The notes beneath the pieces were generated by a model. It was not told where the DNA came from, did not search any database, and saw only the letters and a list, made by a program, of their open reading frames with translations. From NCBI GenBank assembly GCA_963833225.1, contig CAWHXD010000008.1, positions 160,001 to 224,000 on the forward strand: 64,000 nt of DNA, in the 5' to 3' direction. Below, piece after piece: positions 6,398 through 33,066 of this stretch. A program made the translations under genes and the position numbers. Source of the stretch: an uncultured Chloroflexia bacterium (lineage in GTDB: Bacteria; Chloroflexota; Limnocylindria; Limnocylindrales; CSP1-4). Every line of letters begins with the position of its first letter. The first letter of the stretch is position 1.

Positions 6398-7819
6398 CTA
6401 TGTCCGGTTGGTCTTGACCGGCGGATCGGGCGGCGCGAACAGCCAGGTCTCCGGGTTGCCCAGCTTGGACATGTGTCCCAGGTCCTCCCCGTTGAGGGTG
6501 AAGTACGTCGCGCTGGACTTGCCCGTGCGCACCTCGATGGACTGCTGCGCGGTGAACGTCAGCACCTTGCCCGGGCTGTAGACGGTGCCCGCGGCACCCG
6601 TCACCTTGGACAGCTTGCCATCCACCCAGACCTTGAGCCACGCCGTGGAGCCCTTGACCGTGATCACGAGGTTCACGCCCTTGTAGACGATCGTGACGTT
6701 GCGCGTCAGCGTGGTGGCCTTGCCCTCCTGCGAGGTGGCGGTCACCACGATCGTCCAGGCCCCGGCCGAGAGATCGAGCGGCGTGTCGAACGAGCCGTCC
6801 TCGCCCACCTCGACCGTCACCGGACCCACGGTGGGACCAGCCGGGATCACTGGCGCCGGCGAGCCCGAATCCGGCGCGGCGGTCGGCGTGTCTGCGGGGG
6901 CTGCGGGCGTCGCGACCGGCTTCCCGTCGGCGTCCGCGGTCTGCACCGCCCCGATCGCGACCGACACGGCGTTCGATGTCGTCCCTCGCACCGGGATGGC
7001 GCCGTTCTCGAACTTGGAGCCCTCGGCCGGCGAGTCGAGGTTGAGCGTGGGCGCCTCGATCACGAGGAAGGGCACGGTGATGAACACCCGCTCGGAGTTC
7101 TCGGACGCCTTGCCGGTCTCCGGGTCCAGCGCGCTGATGTCGAACTGGTTGCGTCCGCGGCGAAGCTCGACATCGGCGGTCCAGCGCCCATTGTCGTCCG
7201 CCGTCACCCGGTATGGCTGCTCGCGCCCGGCAGCGTCGACCGTGATCGTCGCCCCCGCGATCGAGGTCCCGCGCAGGGAGTACGTCGTCGTGTCCTCGGG
7301 GACCTCGATCACCGCCTGGGGCGGATTGGTCAGAGCGAGCGTCGGCGGCTTGGCAAACCGGACGAGCTGGATCCCGATGTACACGGCGAACACCGCGATC
7401 AGGATCGTGAGCAGCGCGGCCACGATGATCACCGGGGAGAACGTCAGGCCCTGCCGCGGCGCGGCCAGCGGCTTGGGCACCGACAGGGCGGGCTCTGCCG
7501 CCACCTGGGTATCGCCGCGCTCCCGGCGCCACTGGCGGATCACGTCCTCCGGGTCCAGGCCCAGATACAGCGCGTAGTTGCGCAGGAAGCCCTTGGTGTA
7601 GACGGCACCCGGCAGCTCGGCATACTCGCCGTGCTCGAGGGCCGCGAGATAGCGGGCGCGGATCTTGGTGTCGCGCTCGGCGCGGTAGAGGTCGACCCCC
7701 TTGCGCTCGCGAGCGGCCAGCAGCCGTTCCGGAAGGAGCGGGCCGGCCTCCTGGGCGTACGCGCGGTCCCCATCTCGCGCATCGGCGCGGGCCCGGCGCA
7801 GTCGGTCTCGCGTCGTCAT
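6398..7819 (-). CDS. rodZ: RodZ-like protein: HTH, TM helix, Ig-like beta domains, DUF4115-like C-terminus
   Basis: ATG 7819 overlaps the ftsK stop. RodZ HTH 'TKIRARYLAALEHGEYAELPGAVYTKGFLRNYALYLGLD', a TM helix, and C-terminal 'WLKVWVDGK..IEVRTGK..LNG'. Confidence 0.82.
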   Translation of the reverse strand: MTTRDRLRRARADARDGDRAYAQEAGPLLPERLLAARERKGVDLYRAERDTKIRARYLAALEHGEYAELPGAVYTKGFLRNYALYLGLDPEDVIRQWRRERGDTQVAAEPALSVPKPLAAPRQGLTFSPVIIVAALLTILIAVFAVYIGIQLVRFAKPPTLALTNPPQAVIEVPEDTTTYSLRGTSIAGATITVDAAGREQPYRVTADDNGRWTADVELRRGRNQFDISALDPETGKASENSERVFITVPFLVIEAPTLNLDSPAEGSKFENGAIPVRGTTSNAVSVAIGAVQTADADGKPVATPAAPADTPTAAPDSGSPAPVIPAGPTVGPVTVEVGEDGSFDTPLDLSAGAWTIVVTATSQEGKATTLTRNVTIVYKGVNLVITVKGSTAWLKVWVDGKLSKVTGAAGTVYSPGKVLTFTAQQSIEVRTGKSSATYFTLNGEDLGHMSKLGNPETWLFAPPDPPVKTNRT

Positions 7820-10255
7820 GCCCTGTCCTCGTCCTCTGCCGGGCCCGGCGCTTCCGCCCGGCGGAGGACCACCCGGGCATTGGAGCCGTCGAACTTGCCC
7901 ACGTATCCCCGCACCTCGAGCTGGTCGATGATCCGGGCGGCCCTGGCGTAGCCGATTCTTCAGGCGCCGCTGGAGCAGGGACGCCGAGGCCCGATCGTAC
8001 TCCTGGATGACCGCGACCGCGTCCAGCAGGAGCCGGTCGGCGTCATCCTCGACGGCCTCTTCGACGGAGCCCGTGGAATCCTCGTCGGACGCGACGATGG
8101 CGAGGTCGTAGCGCGGCGGCCCGTCCACCTGGTCCCGCCAGTGCTGGGTCACGGCCACGATCTCCGGGTCCGAGACGAACACGCCCTGGTGGCGCGTGGG
8201 CTTGGGCTGGTCGGACGGCTGGTACAGCATGTCCCCGCGGCCGATCAGGTCCTCCGCGCCGGGCGCATCGAGGATCGTGCGGCTGTCGATCTGGCTGGCC
8301 ATCGCGAACGCGATCCGCGAGGGGAAGTTGGCCTTGATCAGGCCGGTCACGACGTTGACCGACGGGCGCTGGGTGGCGAGGACCATGTGGACGCCGGTGG
8401 CCCGCGCCTTCTGCGCCAGCCGGACGATCGGGTCCTCGACGTTCTTCCCTTCCCGCATCATGAGGTCCGCGAGCTCGTCGATCACGATCACGATGTACGG
8501 CAGGCGGTCGGCCGGATCCACCCGGGTGTCGTTGTAGGACTTGATGTTGCGGGCGGTCGCGCCGGCGAACTTGCGGTAGCGGTGCTCCATCTCGGACACG
8601 GCCCACTTGAGCGCCGCCTTGGCCTTGTCGGGCTCGGTGATCACCGGGACCAGCAGGTGCGGCAGCTCGTTGTAGCCGGCGAGCTCGACGCGCTTGAGGT
8701 CCATCAGGATCATCCGCACGTCGTCCGGGGTGGCGTTGCACAACAGGCTGGTGATCACGGCGTTGACCATGACGCTCTTGCCCGAGCCCGTGGCGCCCGC
8801 GATCAGCAGGTGGGGCATCCGGGCGAGGTCCACGGCCACGGCGCGGCCGGCCACGTCGCGGCCGAGGGCGAAGGTCAGGCGCGTCCCCGAGGCTGAGAAG
8901 TCGACCTCCTCGAGGATCCGGCGCAGCGCGACGACGTTGAAGTCCGCGTTGGGGATCTCGATGCCCACGGCGCTCTTGCCCGGGATGGGCGCCTCGATCC
9001 GGATGCTGCGTGCGGCAAGCGCCATGGCGAGATCGTCCGAGAGGGCCTCGATCCGGCTGACCTTGATGTGGGCCGCCGGCTGGACCTCGTACTGGGTGAC
9101 GACGGGCCCCGCGTTGCGTCCGACGATCCGGGCCGGGATGTCGAAGCTCTGGAGCTTGCGGACGATGATCTCCTCGTTGCGCGCGTGGAGCACGTCCTGG
9201 TTGCCGGAGGCGACGGCGCTGATCGGCTCGCCCGGATCGAGCAGCGCGTGGGGCGGCAGCGTCCACTCGATAGGCGCGCGTGTGGGCGGCGTGTCCGCCC
9301 CGTCCGTGACGTCACCCGGATCGCGACGAGGACGCTCGGCCGGCACGCGCGCGAGCCCCGGATCGGCGAGCGCCGAACCCGCCGCGCGCAACGGGGCGAT
9401 GGTGGCCGACGCGGGCCCCATCGTGGGCATCGCGACCGGGATGTCGTTCATCCCGTCGTCCGAGCCCCAGACGCCGGTCTGGCCAGGGGCGTCCACGGCC
9501 GGGATCCGGGCGCCCCGGCCTCGACGGCCGCCTTCCGACGGGGCCGGCCCGGTTGCCACGTCCACGACGCGTTGCCCGTTGGCGCTCTTGCCATTAGCCT
9601 TCGGGGTCGACCCCTCCGTCTTCACGGCCTTGATCGTCCGGTCCTGGAGCGTGGTCCCGGCCGCCTTTGCGAGGTTCGTGGCTGGCGCCAGCATGGCCCG
9701 CAACGGTTGGTCGAAGGCGATCAGCAGGCCCGCGAGCAGCAGGACGGTCAGCACCACGAACGCACCCGGGCCTGTCAAGAGCGGTGCCAGGAGGTCCGCC
9801 AGGAACCGCCCGATGCGTCCGCCGGTCCAGCGATTGACGTCGATCAGCTGGAGCATGCCCACGAACCCCACGTAGGCGAGGCCGATGCCCAGCAGCGTGC
9901 GTCCCCAGGGCGCGCCCTTCTCCTTGCCGGGACCCCATTCGAGGTACCAGCCGGCAACGAGCAGCACGAACGGCAGCAGCCAGCGCCCGGATCCCACGAA
10001 CGGGGCGGCGGTGTCGCGCCACCAGTCCGTGAGGCTCCCCTTGCCCGGCAGCGTCAGGGCGATCAGCGTCACGGCGCCCAGGCCCAGCAGGAACAGGCCA
10101 ACCAGCGACCGGACCACATCCGAGGACAGCCCGAGCGACAGCCGCGGCAGCGGCAGACCACGACGCCTGGCCGTCGACCGCGACCGGGATGACGGGGCCC
10201 GGGTCGGTCGCCGCGCCGGCGCGGAGCGCGACGTCGGGCGTCGCTGCTTCGCCAT
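7816..10255 (-). CDS. ftsK: DNA translocase FtsK/SpoIIIE (1-nt insertion near 7958)
   Basis: 4-TM N-terminus, 'PHLLIAGATGSGKS', 'VIDELADLM', 'LATQRPS'. The gamma domain reads 'ASASLLQRRLK(I)GYARAARIIDQLE' once one extra A is removed. Confidence 0.95.
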
Positions 10256-10258
10256 CCG

Positions 10259-11926
10259 CTAGACCTCGACCACGACGGGGAAGACCATCGGCCGGCGCTT
10301 GGTCTGCTCGTAGAGGAACCGGGAGACGCCGCCCTTGATCTGCTCCTTGAGCAGCGCGATCTCGGAGATCCGGTCGCCGGGGGTCTCCACCGCCTCGCGG
10401 ATCCGGCGGATCGCCTCCTCGATCAGCGGGTCGTCCTCGTTCCCGTGGACGAACCCGCGGGTGATGATCTCCGGCCGGCCGACCATCTTGTTGGTCTGCT
10501 TGTCGATCTGGACCACGACCATGAACATGCCGTCGTTGGCGAGCGCACGGCGGTCCCGCAGGACGACGTCCCCCACCTCGCCCACCGACAGGCCGTCCAC
10601 GTAGACATACCCCGCGGCGACGGGCTGGCCCCGGCGCGCGGACCCGTCCGCGAAGATCTCGATCGGCGTCCCGTTCTCGATGATGAACACGTTCTCGGGC
10701 TCCACGCCCGTCTCGATCGCCAGGCGCCCGTGCTGCACCTGCATCCGGAACTCGCCGTGCATGGGGATGAAGTACCGGGGCTTGGTGAGCCCCAGCATGA
10801 GCTTGAGCTCCTCCTGGCTGGCGTGGCCCGAGACGTGCGCGTGCTTGATCGTGTGGTAGTAGACGTTGGCACCCGCCTTGAACAGGTTGTCGATGGTCCG
10901 GGCCACGTATTCCTCGTTGCCCGGGATGGGGCTCGCGGACACGATGACCGTGTCGCCCTGCTGGATCTCCACGAACCGGTGGTCCCGGTTGGCCATCCGC
11001 GCGAGTCCCGACATCGGCTCACCCTGCGCCCCGGTCGTCGCGATCACGGTCCGATGGGCCGGGTGATCGCCGATCTTGTCCTTGGCCAGGAACTGCGACG
11101 GCTCGAAGTTGAGATAGCCGAGGTCCGACGCGATCCGGGTGTTCTGCTCCATCGACCGGCCGACCACGGCCACCTGCCGGTTGAACGTCTTGGCGGCGTC
11201 GAACACCTGCTGGATGCGGGCGATGTTGGATGCGAAGGTGGCGACGATGACCCGCCCCTCGAGGCCCTCCATGATCTCGCGGAAGGCCTCGCCCACCGTG
11301 CGCTCGGACGGCGTGTAGCCCGGGTTCTCGGCCCGCGTCGAGTCCGACAGGAGGCAGATCACGCCCTCCTGGCCCATGCGCGCGATGGTGGCGAACTCGG
11401 ACGGCTTGCCGTCAACGGGGGTGTGGTCGAACTTGAAGTCCCCCGTGGTGACCACGACCCCGACCGGGGTCCGCAGGGCAAGGCCCATGGCGTCGGGGAT
11501 CGAATGGCCGACCCGGAACGGGATGACGTCGAACGGGCCGATCGTGATCTCATCGCCCGGATCGAGCGCGAGGATCGGGTTGGCGTGGAGCTTGTGCTCC
11601 TTGACCTTGTTGCCCAGCAGGCCGCGGGCGAGGGTGCTCGCGTACACCGGCACGCCGGGGAACTCCGGGAGCACGTAGGGCAGGCCGCCGACGTGGTCCT
11701 CGTGGGCGTGGGTGATCAGGAACGCCCGGACCTTGGCGCGGTTCTCCTTGAGATAGGTCACGTCGGGGACGACGAGGTCGATGCCGAACATCTCCTCGTC
11801 GGGGAACATGAGCCCGCAGTCGATCACGACGATGTCGTCGCCGTACTCCACGACGTAGCAGTTCTTGCCGATCTCGCCCACACCTCCGAGCGGGATGATG
11901 CGGAGCGGGATGTTGGGGTCGGCCAT
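10259..11926 (-). CDS. rnj: Ribonuclease J
   Basis: 'PLGGVGEIGKN', 'THAHEDHVG', 'HVSGHAS', 'PMHGEFR'; 555 aa. Confidence 0.96.
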   Translation of the reverse strand: MADPNIPLRIIPLGGVGEIGKNCYVVEYGDDIVVIDCGLMFPDEEMFGIDLVVPDVTYLKENRAKVRAFLITHAHEDHVGGLPYVLPEFPGVPVYASTLARGLLGNKVKEHKLHANPILALDPGDEITIGPFDVIPFRVGHSIPDAMGLALRTPVGVVVTTGDFKFDHTPVDGKPSEFATIARMGQEGVICLLSDSTRAENPGYTPSERTVGEAFREIMEGLEGRVIVATFASNIARIQQVFDAAKTFNRQVAVVGRSMEQNTRIASDLGYLNFEPSQFLAKDKIGDHPAHRTVIATTGAQGEPMSGLARMANRDHRFVEIQQGDTVIVSASPIPGNEEYVARTIDNLFKAGANVYYHTIKHAHVSGHASQEELKLMLGLTKPRYFIPMHGEFRMQVQHGRLAIETGVEPENVFIIENGTPIEIFADGSARRGQPVAAGYVYVDGLSVGEVGDVVLRDRRALANDGMFMVVVQIDKQTNKMVGRPEIITRGFVHGNEDDPLIEEAIRRIREAVETPGDRISEIALLKEQIKGGVSRFLYEQTKRRPMVFPVVVEV

Positions 11927-11944: not shown

Positions 11945-12707
11945 CTAGAAGAGGGTGAGCTGGGACGCATCGTCGGCCGCGGGGTCGGCGGCGCTGGGCG
12001 ACGGGGTGGGGGCCGGCGGCGGGTCGGCGGGACCGGGGGTCGGCGGCGGGTCGTCGGGACCCGGGTCGGAGGATGGCGGGGCGGCTTCCCCGACCGCGGA
12101 GGCCGGGTCGGCACGACGTTCGCGGGCATCGAGCAGGACGGTCGGAACCCGGGCCATGTCCTCGAAGCTCTCGCGCTCGATGGCCGCGGTTCGCAGCGCC
12201 GCGGCGGGGTGGTACATCGCGAACACGAGGGCGTTCCGGGCGCCGGTGGCGGGGTCCACCGGGGCCGTCGTGCCGTGGACCTGCCCGATCCGGGCGCCGG
12301 GCATGAACGCGCCCATCGAGTACCGGCCCAGGGTCACGACCACGGCGGGATCGAGCACCTCCAGCTGCCGGCGGAGGAACCCGGCGCAGGCCGCGATCTC
12401 GTCCGGTTGCGGGTCCCGGTTGTCCGGCGGGCGGCACTTCACGACGTTGGTGATGAACACGTCCTCCCGGCGCCAGCCGACGTGCGCGCAGGAGACGAAC
12501 GAGCAGCGCGCCGGCACGGCCCACGAACGGGCGCCCCTCGCGGTCCTCGTTGAACCCCGGCCCCTCGCCGACGAACACGACCTCCGTGTCCGGATCGCCC
12601 TCGCCCGGGACAGCGCGGGTGCGCCCCTCGTGCAAGCGGCAGGCCGTGCAGTCCCGGACCTCGTTCGCGATCAGCTCGAGCGCCGCGCGGCGCTCGTCGC
12701 GGGTCAC
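11945..12707 (-). CDS. Uracil-DNA glycosylase family 4 (frameshift near 12495)
   Basis: 'CTACRL', 'VGEGPG..EDREGRPFVGRAG', 'NVVKCRPP.NRDP..DEIAAC', 'YHPAAALR'. C-terminal Pro-rich linker ending QLTLF. Confidence 0.9.
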
Positions 12708-14397: not shown

Positions 14398-16983
14398 CTA
14401 CTTCGCCAGATGCCGCTGCATCGCCGCCTTGCGGGACAGGTTGACGCGGCCCTGGCGGTCGATCTCGGTGACCACCACCATGACCTCGTCGCCGACGGAC
14501 ACGACGTCCTCGACGGACGGCACGTGGTAGTCGGCGAGCTCGCCGATCCGGATCAGGCCTTCCTTGCCGGGCAGGATCTCCACGAAGCAGCCGAAGGTCA
14601 TCAGCCGGGTGACCTTGCCCAGGTACAGGGCGCCGATCTCGACCTCGCGGGTGAGGCTCTCGATCCAGGTGATCGCCTTGCGCGAGTTCTCGCCGGAGAC
14701 GGCCGCGATCTCCACGGTGCCGTCGTCCTCGACGTTGATCTCGGTCTCGGTCTCCTCCTGGATCTTGCGGATCATCGATCCACCCTTGCCGATGATCTCG
14801 CGGATCTTCTCGGGGTTGATCTTGATCGTGATGATCCGCGGGGCGAAGTCGGACATCTCCTCGCGAGCCGAGGGGAGGACCGCGGTCATCTTGTCAAGGA
14901 TGAACAGGCGGGCCGCCAGGGCCTGCTTGAGACCCTCACGGATGACCCGCTCGTCGATGCCCTTGACCTTGATGTCCATCTGGAGAGCCGTGATGCCCTC
15001 CGTGGTGCCGGTCACCTTGAAGTCCATGTCGCCGATCGAGTCCTCCTTGCCGAGGATGTCGGTCAGCACCACGAAGTTGCCGGTATCGGCGTCGAGCACG
15101 AGGCCCATCGCCGCGCCGGCCACCGGGGCCTTGATCGGCACGCCGGCATCCATGAGGGCGAGGGTCGAGCCGCAGGTCGAGGCCATGGACGTCGAGCCGT
15201 TGCCGGCGACCACCTCGGACACGAGGCGGATGACGTACGGGAACTCGTCGTGCGACGGGAGGACCGGCAGCAGCGCCCGGCCGGCCAGGTTGCCGTGGCC
15301 GATGTCGCGCCGGCTGGGGCCGCGCATGGGCTTGTTCTCGCCCGTGCTGTACGGCGGGAAGTTGTAGTGGTGGAGGTACCGCTTCTCGGTCTCGGGGCTG
15401 ATGGTGTCGATCCGCTGGACGTCCGAGGACGCCCCCAGGGTGGCGACGGTCAGCGCCTGCGTCTGGCCACGGGTGAACAGGCCCGAGCCGTGGGCGCGCG
15501 GCAGCAGGCCGACCTCGACCGAGATCGGGCGGATCTCGTCGGTGGCACGGCCGTCCATCCGGAGCCCCTCGGCGAGGACGAGCCCGCGGACGGTCTTCTT
15601 GTTGACGAGGTTGAACAGGCTCTTGCTCACGCGCGCGCTGCGACGCGCCGCCTCCAGCATGGCAGCCGCCTTCGCGGCATCCCCGCGGGTGGCCCGGACG
15701 GCATCCGCGATGCCGGCCTTGAGCGTCTCGAGGCGGCCCGGCAGCTCGTTGCCGAACCAGATCAGCAGGTTCGCGGTCGCCTCCGCGTCCGGAAGGGCGC
15801 GGTGGTTCTCGGACAGCTCGACCCCGAAGAACTTGGCCAGGGTGCCCAGCTTGTAGTTCTCGAGATCCGGGTAGCCCTCGCGGGCGATCACCAGCGTGTC
15901 CAGGTAGCGGCCCTGCTCCACGCGGGTGCCGTCGCCGAGAGCCTCCTCGATGAACCCGATGTCAAACCCGACGGAGTGGCCGACGAACGGCGCATCGCCC
16001 ACGAAGTCGAGCGCCTTGCGGGCGGCCTCGGCCGGGGTCGGGGCGCCCTTCACGTCCTTGTCCGTGATGCCGTGCATCTGGTTGCCCACGATCGGCCGGC
16101 CCGGGTTGACGAGGGTGGACCAGCGGTCGGTGATCTTGCCGCCCTTGACCCGCACCGCGGCGACCTCGACCAGGTCCGCCATCTTGGGGTCCGTGCCCGT
16201 GGTCTCGACGTCCACCACGACGAACTCGCCGCCCGCCTTCGCCAGGTCGGCGAAGTTGAGCACGGAGCTGGTCGCCGGCTCGATGTAGGGCAGGCGCTTG
16301 GGCTTGCCGACGAGCTCCCGGAGCTTCTCCTGGATGTCGATCAGCGGCTGCAGGGCCCGGTGGCCGAACAGGATGGCCTCGGCCATCACGTCCTCGGGCA
16401 GGATCTTGACGCCCGCCTCGACCATCATGATCGCGTCGCGCGTGCCGGAGACGATCAGGTCGAGCGCCGAGTCGGCCAGCTGCGGGTAGGTGGGGTTGAG
16501 GACGAACTCGCCGTCGATGTAGCCGACGCGGACCGCGCCGACCGGACCCTGGAACGGGATCTCGCTGATCGTGAGCGCCGCGGACGCGGCGATCGTGCCC
16601 AGGATGTCCGGGTCGTTCTCGTGGTCCGTCGAGAGGACGGTGATCACGAGCTGGATATCGTCCTTGTAGCCCTCGGGGAACAGGGGGCGGATGGGGCGGT
16701 CCGTGAGGCGCGCCGCGAGCGTCGCTGCCTCGGACGCGCGGCCCTCGCGCTTGATGAAGCCGCCGGGGATCTTGCCCGCGGCGTACATGCGCTCCTCGAA
16801 GTCGACCGTCAGCGGGAAGAAGTCGAGGCCGGGGCGCGGCTCGGACCGGTTCGCGGTCCCGAGGACCATGGAGTCGCCGTAGCGCAGGGTGACGGCGCCG
16901 CCGGCGAGCCCGGCAAGCTTGCCGGTTTCCAGCGTGAGCGTGCGATCGCCGAACTCGATCTCGAGCGTGGTGGGAGTGGGCAC
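14398..16983 (-). CDS. pnp: Polynucleotide phosphorylase with an internal DEDDh (DnaQ-like) exonuclease domain
   Basis: RNase PH1 ('FFPLTVDFEE','GKIPGGFIKREG'), PH2 ('RRDIGHG','NGSTSMAS','DILGKEDSIGDMDFKVTGT'), KH ('IIGKGG') and S1 domains. Insert at about aa 253-408 with 'VVDVETTG','HSVGFD','HRALPDA'. Follows rpsO, with an AAGGAGGT RBS. Confidence 0.96.
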   Translation of the reverse strand: MPTPTTLEIEFGDRTLTLETGKLAGLAGGAVTLRYGDSMVLGTANRSEPRPGLDFFPLTVDFEERMYAAGKIPGGFIKREGRASEAATLAARLTDRPIRPLFPEGYKDDIQLVITVLSTDHENDPDILGTIAASAALTISEIPFQGPVGAVRVGYIDGEFVLNPTYPQLADSALDLIVSGTRDAIMMVEAGVKILPEDVMAEAILFGHRALQPLIDIQEKLRELVGKPKRLPYIEPATSSVLNFADLAKAGGEFVVVDVETTGTDPKMADLVEVAAVRVKGGKITDRWSTLVNPGRPIVGNQMHGITDKDVKGAPTPAEAARKALDFVGDAPFVGHSVGFDIGFIEEALGDGTRVEQGRYLDTLVIAREGYPDLENYKLGTLAKFFGVELSENHRALPDAEATANLLIWFGNELPGRLETLKAGIADAVRATRGDAAKAAAMLEAARRSARVSKSLFNLVNKKTVRGLVLAEGLRMDGRATDEIRPISVEVGLLPRAHGSGLFTRGQTQALTVATLGASSDVQRIDTISPETEKRYLHHYNFPPYSTGENKPMRGPSRRDIGHGNLAGRALLPVLPSHDEFPYVIRLVSEVVAGNGSTSMASTCGSTLALMDAGVPIKAPVAGAAMGLVLDADTGNFVVLTDILGKEDSIGDMDFKVTGTTEGITALQMDIKVKGIDERVIREGLKQALAARLFILDKMTAVLPSAREEMSDFAPRIITIKINPEKIREIIGKGGSMIRKIQEETETEINVEDDGTVEIAAVSGENSRKAITWIESLTREVEIGALYLGKVTRLMTFGCFVEILPGKEGLIRIGELADYHVPSVEDVVSVGDEVMVVVTEIDRQGRVNLSRKAAMQRHLAK

Positions 16984-17072
16984 AGGTGAACGACCTCCTT
17001 GGTCGAGCGTGTGAGGATGCCTTGCGGCGGGTGGGGCCGGGTTGTCGCGAGGGACCGGGCGCCGGATGCGTA

Positions 17073-17099
17073 CGACCCCGGGACAACGGCCCGGGGTCG
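17073..17099. terminator. Hairpin in the rpsO-pnp intergenic region (terminator or processing stem)
   Basis: cgaccccggg-acaacgg-cccggggtcg, perfect 10-bp stem; no U-tract. Confidence 0.5.
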
Positions 17100-17113
17100 G
17101 GATGCGGCTGGTC

Positions 17114-17383
17114 CTAGCGGCGAAGTCCGAGCGAGCCGATCACGGCTCGATAGCGAGCGGGGTCCTTCTTCACCAGGTAGGCGAGAAGGCGCCGGCGCTG
17201 TCCCACGAGCTTGAGGAGGCCGCGGCGCGAATGGTTGTCCTTCGGGAAGCGGCGGAGGTGCTCCGTCAGGTCCCGGATCCGCTCCGTCAGGAGCGCGATC
17301 TGGACCTCGGGCGAACCCGTGTCGCCGTCCTTGACGGCGTACTCGGTGATGACCTCTTGCTTCTTCTCCCGCGCGAGCGGCAC
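17114..17383 (-). CDS. rpsO: 30S ribosomal protein S15
   Basis: '[13 protein letters not shown]', '[23 protein letters not shown]'. GTG 17383 with a GGAGGA RBS gives 89 aa. Confidence 0.97.
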
Positions 17384-17439
17384 TCGATCCTCCGACACGA
17401 ACGATGGCGTGACTACACAACTTGTTCTTCGACCCGCGG

Positions 17440-31041: not shown

Positions 31042-32032
31042 TCAGCCGACCTCCGCCGGCTCGATGGGCGCGCGCCGCGCGGGCCGGCCGCTCTCGGCGG
31101 CCCGCTCCGCGAGCACCTTGTGGGGGTGGAGCGCGCCCGCGACCGCCCGGCAGACGGCCGCGATCCGGCCGTCAGGCCCGACGGCGAGCACGAGCGGCGC
31201 GTCGCGCACCGCGAACGGCGCCTTGGGGGCGGTGATCAGGCCCTCACCCAGGCGCCGCACCTCGTCGAGCGTGATCTGCGCGTGCGGCAGGTCCTCGAGT
31301 CCGGCGTCGATCGGCCGCAACACCCGCTCGATCCCGGCCGGCCCGTCGGCCGCGTGCTCGCGCAACGACTCGAACGAGATCGCATCCTCGAGCCGGAAGC
31401 TGCCCGAGGCGGTCCGCACCAGCGCCCCGAGGTAGGCGCCGCTCCCGAGGGCCGCCCCGAGGTCCCGGGCAAGCGCCCGGATATAGGTGCCGGCCGAGCA
31501 GCTGACGTCCACGACCGCGACCGGCCGCGCCGGGTCCGATCCGTCCCACTCGAGGAGCGTGGCTTCATGGATCACCACGTCACGCGGCGCGAGCTCGACG
31601 TGCTCGCCGCGCCGGGCCAGCTGGTAGGCACGCCGCCCCTCGATCTGGACCGCCGAGTACACCGGCGGGACCTGGCTGGAGCGGTCCAGTGAAGTCGGCC
31701 AGCGCCCGCTCGACGGCCTCCCGGTCCAGGGCCGGCCCGTCGATCGGGGTCCGCTCGCCATCGATGTCGTCCGTGGTCGATGTGGCCCCGAAGCAGATCG
31801 TCGCCCGGTAGCGCTTGGTGCCCGTGAGGTGGTACTCGACCAGGCGCGTGGCCCTGCCCAGGAAGACGGGGAGCACCCCGGCGGCGAACGGATCCAGGGT
31901 GCCGCCATGTCCCACGCGGCGCGTGGACGACAGGCGCCGGACCAGCCCCACCACGTCGTGGGAGGTCGGACCGGAGGGCTTGGCGACGATGAGCACGCCG
32001 TCGAGGCCCCCGCGACGGTCCCGCGGGCTCAA
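31042..32032 (-). CDS. truB: tRNA pseudouridine(55) synthase (frameshift near 31680)
   Basis: 'KPSGPTSHDVV', 'GHGGTLDPFAAGVL', 'QVPPVYSA', 'CSAGTYIRALARD'. Confidence 0.93.
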
Positions 32033-33066
32033 CGCCGGACCTCGGCGGCGAGGCGTTCCGCTACCTCGCGAACCGCGGTGACCGCGGCCTCGAGCGATAG
32101 CGGCACGGTGGCCCCCGCCGCGCGTGCGTGGCCGCCACCGCCCCACGTCCCGGTGAGCACCGTGGCATCGACCCCGCCCGGCTTGGTGCGGACGGAGAGC
32201 CTCGTCGTGCCGTCGTCCTGCTCCTTGAGCAGCATCGAGACCTCGGCCAGCTCCGCCTGGGCGAGCAGGTCGATGATCCCCTCGGAGTGGGCCGGCATGG
32301 ACCCGGTCTGGTCGAGGTCGGCGGCGCGCAGCGTGGACCACACGACGCGCCGGTCGGGCGTGGTATCGAGGCGGTCCAGGACGCGCCCGAAGAGCCGCAG
32401 CTGGGCATCCGGCTTGGTGCGGTAGAGCCGGCGCGAGATGTCGGACAGCGGCGCCCCCGCCTCCATGAGCGCGGCCGAGACGGCGAGCGTCCGGGGCGTG
32501 GCATTCGGATGCGCGAAGGTCGCCGTGTCCATCACGATGCCGGCCATCAGGACCGCAGCCAGGGTCCCATCGCCCAGGTCGAGCGGCAGGCCGAGACGGA
32601 CCGCGAGCAGCGCCACGAGCTCGCAGGTCGCCGCGGCTCCCGGGTCGATCCAGTCGGCGTCGTTGGTGGCCTCGTTCGACGCGTGGTGGTCCACGATCAC
32701 CCTCGGCAGCGAGCCAAACAGGTCCGCGTGCCTCTGGGCCACGCCGCCGACGCGCTCGGCCGTGGCGCAGTCCGCGAGCACGAGCAGGTCGTAGGCCACG
32801 TCGGGATCGGGATCGGGATCCGTCAGGAACCGGTCCATTCCCGGCAGGAATGCGTACAGGGGCGGCACCGGATCCGTGGAGATGGCGGTCGCCCTGCCGC
32901 CCAGCGCCTCCACGATCAGGCACAGGCCCATCACCGCTCCGAGCGTGTCCGCGTCGGGGTGCTCGTGGGAGACCGCGAGCACGTTGCGCGCCCCGCGCAG
33001 GCGCGCGAGCGCCGCCGACGGGACGGCGTCGCGGGCAAGCAGCGAGAGGTCCACGGCCCGGCTCAC
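32029..33066 (-). CDS. nrnA: DHH/DHHA1 phosphoesterase (NrnA nanoRNase/pAp phosphatase)
   Basis: 'HEHPDADTLG', 'IVDHH', 'GIVMDT', 'GGGGHARAAG'. Canonical position between rbfA and truB. Confidence 0.9.
   Translation of the reverse strand: MSRAVDLSLLARDAVPSAALARLRGARNVLAVSHEHPDADTLGAVMGLCLIVEALGGRATAISTDPVPPLYAFLPGMDRFLTDPDPDPDVAYDLLVLADCATAERVGGVAQRHADLFGSLPRVIVDHHASNEATNDADWIDPGAAATCELVALLAVRLGLPLDLGDGTLAAVLMAGIVMDTATFAHPNATPRTLAVSAALMEAGAPLSDISRRLYRTKPDAQLRLFGRVLDRLDTTPDRRVVWSTLRAADLDQTGSMPAHSEGIIDLLAQAELAEVSMLLKEQDDGTTRLSVRTKPGGVDATVLTGTWGGGGHARAAGATVPLSLEAAVTAVREVAERLAAEVRR

Follow-up and report, generated by a model that had tools for sequence, protein, structure and literature searches.

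Introduction

Polynucleotide phosphorylase (PNPase) is among the best-studied enzymes of RNA decay, and to our knowledge its five-domain plan is regarded as universal. Coordination of phosphorolytic with hydrolytic 3'-5' decay elsewhere needs separate enzymes: PNPase acts with RNase R, Orn, or REXO2, and the eukaryotic exosome with Rrp6, a DEDDy exonuclease of the RNase D type, or Rrp44, an RNB-type enzyme. Here, we describe a pnp gene on the minus strand (14398..16983) of a 64,000-nucleotide stretch of contig CAWHXD010000008.1 (assembly GCA_963833225.1) from an uncultured Chloroflexota bacterium, hereafter the window. Its 861-residue product carries a complete DEDDh exonuclease domain between the two RNase PH domains. 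The PNPase linker can evidently host a domain with an intact catalytic set, a point relevant to the helical domain, whose role is poorly understood, and the protein offers a natural test case for how phosphorolytic and hydrolytic 3'-5' decay might be coordinated.

The domain found here resembles the exonuclease of ExoDinG, a subgroup defined together with its DEDDh motif in passages of a review (PMC11981726). The Listeria ExoDinG is described in parts of PMC12774634 as a dual 3'-5' RNase/DNase that selectively degrades unprocessed rRNA and prefers DNA in vitro. According to sections of PMC12525004, Bacillus subtilis DinG degrades single-stranded DNA (ssDNA), its preferred substrate, as well as the RNA strand of R-loops, and passages of a 2026 preprint (PMC13251995) describe digestion of RNA within R-loops by B. 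subtilis PNPase.

A DEDDh domain lies within the linker of PNPase

The pnp open reading frame (ORF) begins with GTG, contains zero internal stops, and is the sole full PNPase match, and hence the only PNPase gene, in the window's own genome (completeness 86%). The product scored 936.3 bits against the NCBIfam polynuc_phos model TIGR03591 (cut-off 525), in two stretches with the insert between them, and 932.5 against NF008805 (cut-off 471). Pfam ordered the domains as RNase PH domain 1 (PH1), DEDDh exonuclease, two residual linker helices, RNase PH domain 2 (PH2), KH, and S1. RNase_PH was matched in two stretches (E = 3.8e-50), along with RNase_PH_C. Among the Pfam matches of the product at E ≤ 0.01, PF01612 (RNase D) did not occur, and Pfam found no helicase domain in it.

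All features of the gene are on the minus strand. PH1 with RNase_PH_C, delimited by Pfam, alignment, and model helices at 197-225, occupies residues 1 to ~225 (16309..16983) and ends in a conserved GKPK (residues 226-229). By alignment, the insertion starts right after this motif, stops before the last two linker helices, and is not present in insert-less relatives. Alignment and models place it at residues ~232-433 (15685..16290), where it comprises an N-terminal helix (239-249), the DEDDh core, and a long helix (396-431). The core, residues 255-407 (15763..16221), matches PF00929 (RNase_T) over the whole profile (1-164 of 164; E = 2e-26; 93.9 bits, cut-off 24), and was also recovered by structure-sequence search and fold match. 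Behind it lies a residual alpha-helical linker, residues 434-479 (15547..15684), with helices 436-450 and 454-472. Only this remnant matches the helical linker family PF03726 (profile 35-80 of 81, E = 0.0014), at 19.5 bits below the cut-off of 24.6, and the protein does not contain a complete all-alpha linker domain. The phosphorolytic PH2 domain extends from residue 483 to ~705 (14869..15537; best Pfam stretch 483-616), followed by KH (KH_1) at 718-775 (14659..14832) and S1 at 781-852 (14428..14643), both recognized by Pfam.

Residue conservation located the exonuclease motifs: ExoI is D258-x-E260 (16204..16212), ExoII is D341 within HSVGFD (15961..15963), and ExoIII is H394-x4-D399 within HRALPDA (15787..15804). 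In PH2, residues R558, R559, G562, H563, G564, S597, S599, D648, D654, and K656, which we take to have phosphate and metal-binding roles, are invariant across 54 PNPases, and the phosphorolytic enzyme with these conserved residues is predicted to be functional.

An earlier note, made from the letters of the window, had described an 861-residue, frameshift-free PNPase encoded after rpsO, with a DEDDh domain at residues 253-408 (nucleotides 15760-16227) between its RNase PH domains, all five catalytic residues, and intact PNPase, KH, and S1 features. These points stand. The ORF confirms length and position, every motif the note quoted occurs in the translation, Pfam agrees on the domain order and on KH and S1, and the frame is unbroken here and in dozens of independent assemblies. 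The note's view of the insert as a replacement for a portion of the helical domain is partly borne out, in that the last two helices still resemble PF03726, though below its cut-off.

Compared with canonical bacterial PNPases (7ogl, 4aim, 3gcm, 1e3p, 8wxf), the protein keeps the order PH1, linker, PH2, KH, S1, the conserved PH2 residues, and the position after rpsO, and Foldseek matched its model to solved PNPases with E values down to 1e-74. Unlike in those enzymes, the first half of the helical domain has here given way to ~200 residues with a full DEDDh fold among them; in the list of solved PNPases, no entry goes beyond 730 residues or bears a domain within its linker.

The fusion is unbroken in independent genomes

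The possibility that the fusion is an assembly chimera or an annotation artefact was weighed against related genomes and public sequencing runs, and no support for it was found. The relatives fall in five families of one Chloroflexota class, f1 to f5, of which f1, f2, and f4 bear the insert and f3 and f5 are insert-less sisters. Among genomes of the same genus, 18 of 24 matched over the full length without a break, at 87-96% identity; six were cut at contig ends or split. In the same search, 13 of 16 f2 genomes (~1.1 Mb) carried the unbroken frame at ~70% identity; in the class sample described below, 48 of 50 f4 genomes had it. Single-contig genomes are included among those with unbroken frames, and the fusion is shared by relatives across three families.

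Contigs from four public runs, belonging to four studies and including two RNA libraries, cover the gene between them and span its two junctions. X6 records 27 and 28 and X1 record 5 cross junction 1, and X2 record 11 and X6 record 25 cross junction 2. The best share of words in a sequencing run was 0.29, and no run holds the window's strain; the X1 bins 15711-15912, which are without depth, prove nothing. With the insert also under purifying selection, as described below, the probability of a chimera or artefact is vanishingly small, and we regard chance or artefact as excluded as the source of the fusion.

An insert of the DnaQ/PolC/ExoDinG type

The AlphaFold model of the full chain had a mean predicted local distance difference test score (pLDDT) of 88.4, 83-95 in the insert region, and a predicted template modeling score of 0.80. 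In it, helix 239-249 leads into the DEDDh alpha/beta core. The ExoIII helix of this core is extended into a single long helix (396-431) that leads to helices 436-450 and 454-472, beyond which lies PH2. The module modeled alone (pLDDT 90.8) has the DnaQ-type RNase H-like alpha/beta fold. Its top Foldseek match was the exonuclease of Staphylococcus aureus ExoDinG (8zef, E = 4e-12); PolC 9qrn aligned with a root-mean-square deviation of 2.0 over 161 columns at 35% identity. The Foldseek probability was 1.00 for 8zef, 9qrn, 8h2f, and 2ido, with DnaQ/epsilon types among the matches. RNase T structures ranked 15th or lower, and no Orn structure was among the top 50 fold matches listed.

Sequence comparisons agree. 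A search of solved structures returned PolC (9qpc, 2.7e-24; 2p1j, 1.1e-22), DinG (2.7e-17), and Cas2-DEDDh (5e-13), and ExoX is likewise among the closest solved or characterized relatives. By itself, the insert matched the DEDD-exonuclease, PolC, and DinG models of NCBIfam best, and the best 25 of 64 NCBIfam matches were DEDD-GIY-YIG-type, PolC, DinG, and DnaQ models. The insert is a DEDDh exonuclease domain of the DnaQ/PolC/ExoDinG branch, with a fold closest to the exonucleases of ExoDinG, PolC, and DnaQ. It lies outside the Orn/RNase T subfamily. The pnp product does not combine its DEDDh domain with a DinG/XPD superfamily 2 (SF2) helicase and is therefore not an ExoDinG, and the histidine of ExoIII sets it apart from the DEDDy domains of Rrp6 and RNase D.

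Of these relatives, ExoDinG of S. aureus, B. subtilis, and Listeria provides the best structural match and the same DEDDh motifs; the class's own ExoDinG exonuclease is 36-53% identical to the inserts, and both systems attach the exonuclease to a machine for engaging single strands. That machine is an SF2 helicase in ExoDinG and a phosphorolytic RNase ring here, and in the tree described below the insert is not nested among DinG exonucleases. PolC is the best sequence match among solved structures and, as in the 861-residue PNPase, its DEDDh domain is embedded inside a larger enzyme. PolC proofreads DNA within a polymerase, whereas the host enzyme here degrades RNA. The Cas2-DEDDh fusion (8fy9, 8fyc) likewise joins a DnaQ-type DEDDh domain to another nucleic-acid machine, but it is a terminal fusion that trims DNA in CRISPR adaptation rather than an internal insertion.

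The earlier note had also likened the protein to an exosome with Rrp6. At the level of families this comparison fails, for the insert is an H-x4-D DEDDh domain nearest to ExoDinG, the PolC exonuclease, and DnaQ, not to RNase D, RNase T, or Orn. As a functional analogy with the exosome and its Rrp6 or Rrp44, it holds for the pairing of a PH-type ring with a hydrolytic exonuclease. The exosome consists of separate subunits around an inert ring, whereas here one chain of independent bacterial origin joins a DnaQ-branch DEDDh domain to a ring that is predicted to be phosphorolytically active.

The insertion was gained once and is under purifying selection

In a tree of 49 DEDD domains, all 12 sampled inserts formed one clade (support 100/99), with those of f4 as a subclade. 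When the insert columns were removed, the 26 insert-bearing PNPase cores likewise formed a single clade (26/26; Shimodaira-Hasegawa-like approximate likelihood ratio test support 100) beside the insert-less PNPases of the class, with the internal order f4 | (f2, f1), congruent with the insert tree. Since each tree recovers one clade, the insertion reflects one ancient gain: it was acquired once, in the common ancestor of the three families (two orders), and then inherited vertically.

The ratio of nonsynonymous to synonymous substitution (dN/dS), given as the median over 66 same-genus pairs, was 0.161 for PH1, 0.166 for the DEDDh insert, 0.41 for the residual linker helices, 0.087 for PH2, and 0.144 for KH-S1. 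The insert is under purifying selection and, with a value close to that of PH1, is kept as strictly as a core domain. Residues D258, E260, D341, H394, and D399 are retained in 122 of 122 fusion proteins, and together with the flanking motif residues they are invariant in all 22 modules compared (f1, f2, and f4; 40-90% identity). These figures bear on whether the insert could be without catalysis, a structural or nucleic-acid-binding module whose only task is to regulate PNPase. Pseudo-exonuclease domains do exist among DinG relatives, but this pExoDinG has lost its catalytic residues, according to passages of PMC11981726. An invariant catalytic set would be unexpected in a silent domain, and we consider such a module highly improbable.

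The insert-less PNPases of f3, f5, and f18 (another Chloroflexota family) end in an Arg/Gly-rich, RGG-like C-terminal tail of 40-90 residues (C-terminal ends of L022:2434-4686, L023:2478-4688, L024:2467-4686, L025:2274-4484, and L027:1864-4206). In the alignment, all sampled insert-bearing PNPases, the 861-residue protein included, are without this tail and end shortly past S1. Gain of the insert may have coincided with loss of the tail.

The fusion is confined to one Chloroflexota class

The range of the fusion was searched with a junction-spanning query (residues 150-560). In a class sample of 151 genomes, unbroken matches were obtained in f1 (44/44), f2 (6/6), and f4 (48/50, the exceptions being one genome with a partial match at a contig end and one without any pnp match). 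Only the flanks matched in f3 (49/49) and f5 (1/1), where the insert-less pnp lies mostly in frames of ~740-770 residues. This tally includes the unpublished genomes G122, G131, and G156 (f4) and G102, G126, G139, and G145 (f3), and G122 also enters the ExoDinG, RNB, and PF13307 tallies below; their sequences are in no alignment or tree, and every conclusion holds without them.

When 301 genomes from across the phylum were searched at E ≤ 1e-45, the full match was limited to f1 (15/15), f2 (2/2), f4 (15/15), and the genome of the window itself, the remaining genomes searched having an ordinary pnp. The top 150 matches from 1.84 billion representative proteins comprised a single full-length fusion cluster (P0123) and numerous fragments, and none was a fusion from outside the f1/f2/f4 group. 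The ESM Atlas holds three clusters that combine RNase_PH with RNase_T, and Chloroflexota is the commonest phylum in all three. The fusion is restricted to this lineage within one Chloroflexota class. Source names of near-identical proteins are Chloroflexota and 'Candidatus Limnocylindrales', and public annotations of fusions read 'polyribonucleotide nucleotidyltransferase', 'exonuclease domain-containing protein', or 'DNA polymerase III epsilon subunit family exonuclease'. A full-text literature search for a DEDD or DnaQ domain within PNPase gave no description, in keeping with the earlier note's claim, and the design is apparently undescribed.

Candidates for independent fusions elsewhere were rejected. 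The long PNPases P0161, P0222, P0240, P0242, and P0191 have no DEDD domain; outside the class, DEDD-matching frames of 862-893 residues (L080-L082) are without a PNPase part, and L083 and L084 are ExoDinG. P0158, which among the non-PNPases of the representative library matched the insert best, has 1045 residues that comprise three DEDD exonuclease domains in tandem and then GIY-YIG and UVR. P0191 is an 823-residue PNPase with ~140 residues between PH1 and PH2 that have no Pfam match, and the PNPase linker may accept other expansions too.

ExoDinG and RNase R/II in the class

With the ExoDinG protein of genome G041 as the query, full-length ExoDinG was found in all f3 (21/21) and f5 (1/1) genomes. 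In f1 (30/30), f2 (4/4), and f4 (33/34), its exonuclease part matched only inside pnp. The helicase part had one short weak match each in G121 and G075. The PF13307 helicase profile was matched in 21/21 f3 and 1/1 f5 genomes versus 1/30 f1, 0/4 f2, and 1/34 f4 genomes, and a search of the window's own genome with it gave no match. The two exceptions, again G121 and G075, are atypical, one lying in a 2041-residue frame and the other in a 107-residue fragment at a contig end. Other parts of the phylum commonly have ExoDinG, and within the class its distribution and that of the insert are complementary, which ties PNPase to the biology of ExoDinG, namely rRNA quality control and R-loops. In G121, the match (G121:C10:21916-22632) is a DinG/XPD-type helicase C-terminal domain within a different, very large protein.

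A search for RNB enzymes (RNase R/II) found none in the 91 genomes of the class, of which 89 have a completeness of 90% or more; the control rang in 11 of 14 known genomes. The window's own genome likewise gave none. Since RNB is missing class-wide, PNPase would be the main 3'-5' exoribonuclease throughout the class. With RNase R/II missing, the insert may serve these insert-bearing organisms as their chief hydrolytic 3' exoribonuclease, which could be important under phosphate scarcity.

Proposed function of the DEDDh insert

We propose that a complete DnaQ/PolC/ExoDinG-type DEDDh domain, inserted once into the N-terminal half of the alpha-helical linker, probably gives PNPase an active hydrolytic 3'-5' exonuclease site, with RNA as the likeliest substrate and a plausible role as replacement of the ExoDinG nuclease. 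Each protomer would most likely have two 3'-5' exonuclease sites, the phosphate-dependent site of PH2 and a metal-dependent, phosphate-independent hydrolytic site in the insert, so that a trimer, of 2583 residues, would hold 3 + 3. The DEDDh site would probably act on single-stranded 3' ends recruited by KH and S1, and the likeliest RNA targets would be unprocessed or structured RNA ends or R-loop RNA. The insert could thereby take over the nuclease job done by ExoDinG in the sister lineages, and we predict that a helicase and a PH ring can serve as alternative carriers of the same nuclease module. RNA is favored because of the KH/S1 scaffold, because rRNA and R-loop RNA are targets common to ExoDinG and PNPase, and because a further hydrolytic 3' exoribonuclease is missing from the class.

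Alternatively, the DEDDh site could trim ssDNA 3' ends in repair or in replication-transcription conflicts, with PNPase as a delivery platform. The closest solved or characterized relatives of the insert are DNA exonucleases, namely the PolC exonuclease, DnaQ, ExoX, Cas2-DEDDh, and the ssDNA-bound ExoDinG. An ORF 2 kb downstream of pnp (11945-12517), which we take to be uracil-DNA glycosylase-like from recognizing its sequence and not from a family search, would also suit a repair role, although gene neighborhood is weak evidence. B. subtilis DinG favors ssDNA, as stated in sections of PMC12525004, and E. coli PNPase is implicated in recombination and repair in passages of PMC5379764. Yet the host scaffold has RNA-binding KH and S1 domains and intact phosphorolytic residues, and ExoDinG itself works on rRNA precursors in vivo in the parts of the Listeria study cited above. 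We therefore consider a DNA-directed role unlikely.

A finishing role can also be envisaged, in which the DEDDh site next to PH2 hydrolyzes limit products of 2-5 nucleotides as a built-in equivalent of Orn or REXO2. These DEDDh enzymes finish PNPase products elsewhere (passages of PMC7261184, PMC6521605, and PMC6900737), and in human mitochondria, according to the same passages, phosphorolytic PNPase is followed by the hydrolase REXO2 in RNA decay. There, the two are separate proteins acting in trans, and REXO2 and Orn belong to another DEDDh subfamily. The window's own genome shows no Orn-like gene, its three PF00929 matches being the insert, a small DnaQ-like protein, and an RNase_H_2 protein. 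The nearby NrnA reported in the earlier note corresponds to a DHH/DHHA1 gene (32029..33066, minus strand), and this sole NrnA-like gene matches the NrnA model weakly, at 78 bits against a cut-off of 350, which leaves room for a finishing enzyme. But an NrnA-like gene is nonetheless present, and the insert belongs to the DnaQ/PolC/ExoDinG branch, with RNase T at rank 15 or lower and no Orn structure among the top 50 fold matches listed, so that we regard a dedicated nanoRNase role as quite unlikely.

The proposal of an RNA-directed hydrolytic site can be extended to the arrangement of the trimer. The PNPase linker domain presumably lies on the face of the ring opposite KH/S1. Passages of PMC6144817 and PMC3351181 place KH and S1 on top of the ring. 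If the linker is indeed opposite KH/S1, the position of the insert would resemble that of Rrp44 more than that of Rrp6. The protein could then be a one-chain, dual-chemistry decay machine, an active phosphorolytic PH ring whose three linker DEDDh hydrolases, opposite the KH/S1 entry, work on the same threaded strand or on its limit products. Such a machine would have arisen independently, converged functionally on the exosome with its hydrolase, and replaced ExoDinG in rRNA quality control and R-loop RNA removal. We offer this fuller picture tentatively and with some doubt.

Several points weigh against an RNA-directed hydrolytic site that replaces ExoDinG, or limit the evidence for it. Activity and substrate are read from conserved residues and from relatives. 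The complementarity with ExoDinG counts as one event, not many, because f1, f2, and f4 form one clade. The exonuclease domain of the class's own ExoDinG was the expected donor of the insert, but the maximum-likelihood tree places the insert outside the class's DinG exonuclease clade and weakly (93/85) beside small stand-alone DEDDh proteins; the approximately unbiased test of a DinG origin (p = 0.094) neither rejects nor supports it. Loss of RNase R/II was rejected as the driver of the insertion, since RNB is missing from insert-less families as well and does not track the insert. Finally, contigs from RNA libraries do not prove transcription of pnp, and some run joints skip the insert region, e.g., 15517>16522 (X6) and 14863>16372 (X3). 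At 85% likeness and with short sides, these joints probably come from the pnp genes of other organisms.

Stand-alone PRK06063-like DEDDh proteins occur in a few insert-bearing genomes (L075, G068:C10; L076, G069:C18). From the weak sister grouping in the tree, a relative of the insert's donor is possible among proteins of this type.

Gene neighborhood

Directly upstream of pnp is a 94-residue ORF (17114..17398, minus strand), presumably rpsO, encoding ribosomal protein S15, a name given from recognizing its translation, with no family search behind it. The intergenic region (16984..17113, minus strand) contains an AAGGAGG Shine-Dalgarno sequence (~16994-17000), ~10 nucleotides 5' of the pnp GTG start. 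Fold energy of this leader did not differ significantly from that of shuffled sequences (z-score -1.0), a search against Rfam gave no match, and base composition shows no break across the insert within pnp. A GC-rich stem-loop (~17074-17099, minus strand) stands immediately 3' of the rpsO stop codon and 5' of pnp, and is reminiscent of the attenuator or processing hairpin between rpsO and pnp in other bacteria.

Four genes downstream of pnp lies RNase J (10259-11926, minus strand). Next to it is a 1285-residue frame (6398-10255, minus strand) with FtsK domains, HTH_25, and a Glucodextran_B-like stretch, which may be two genes read as one.

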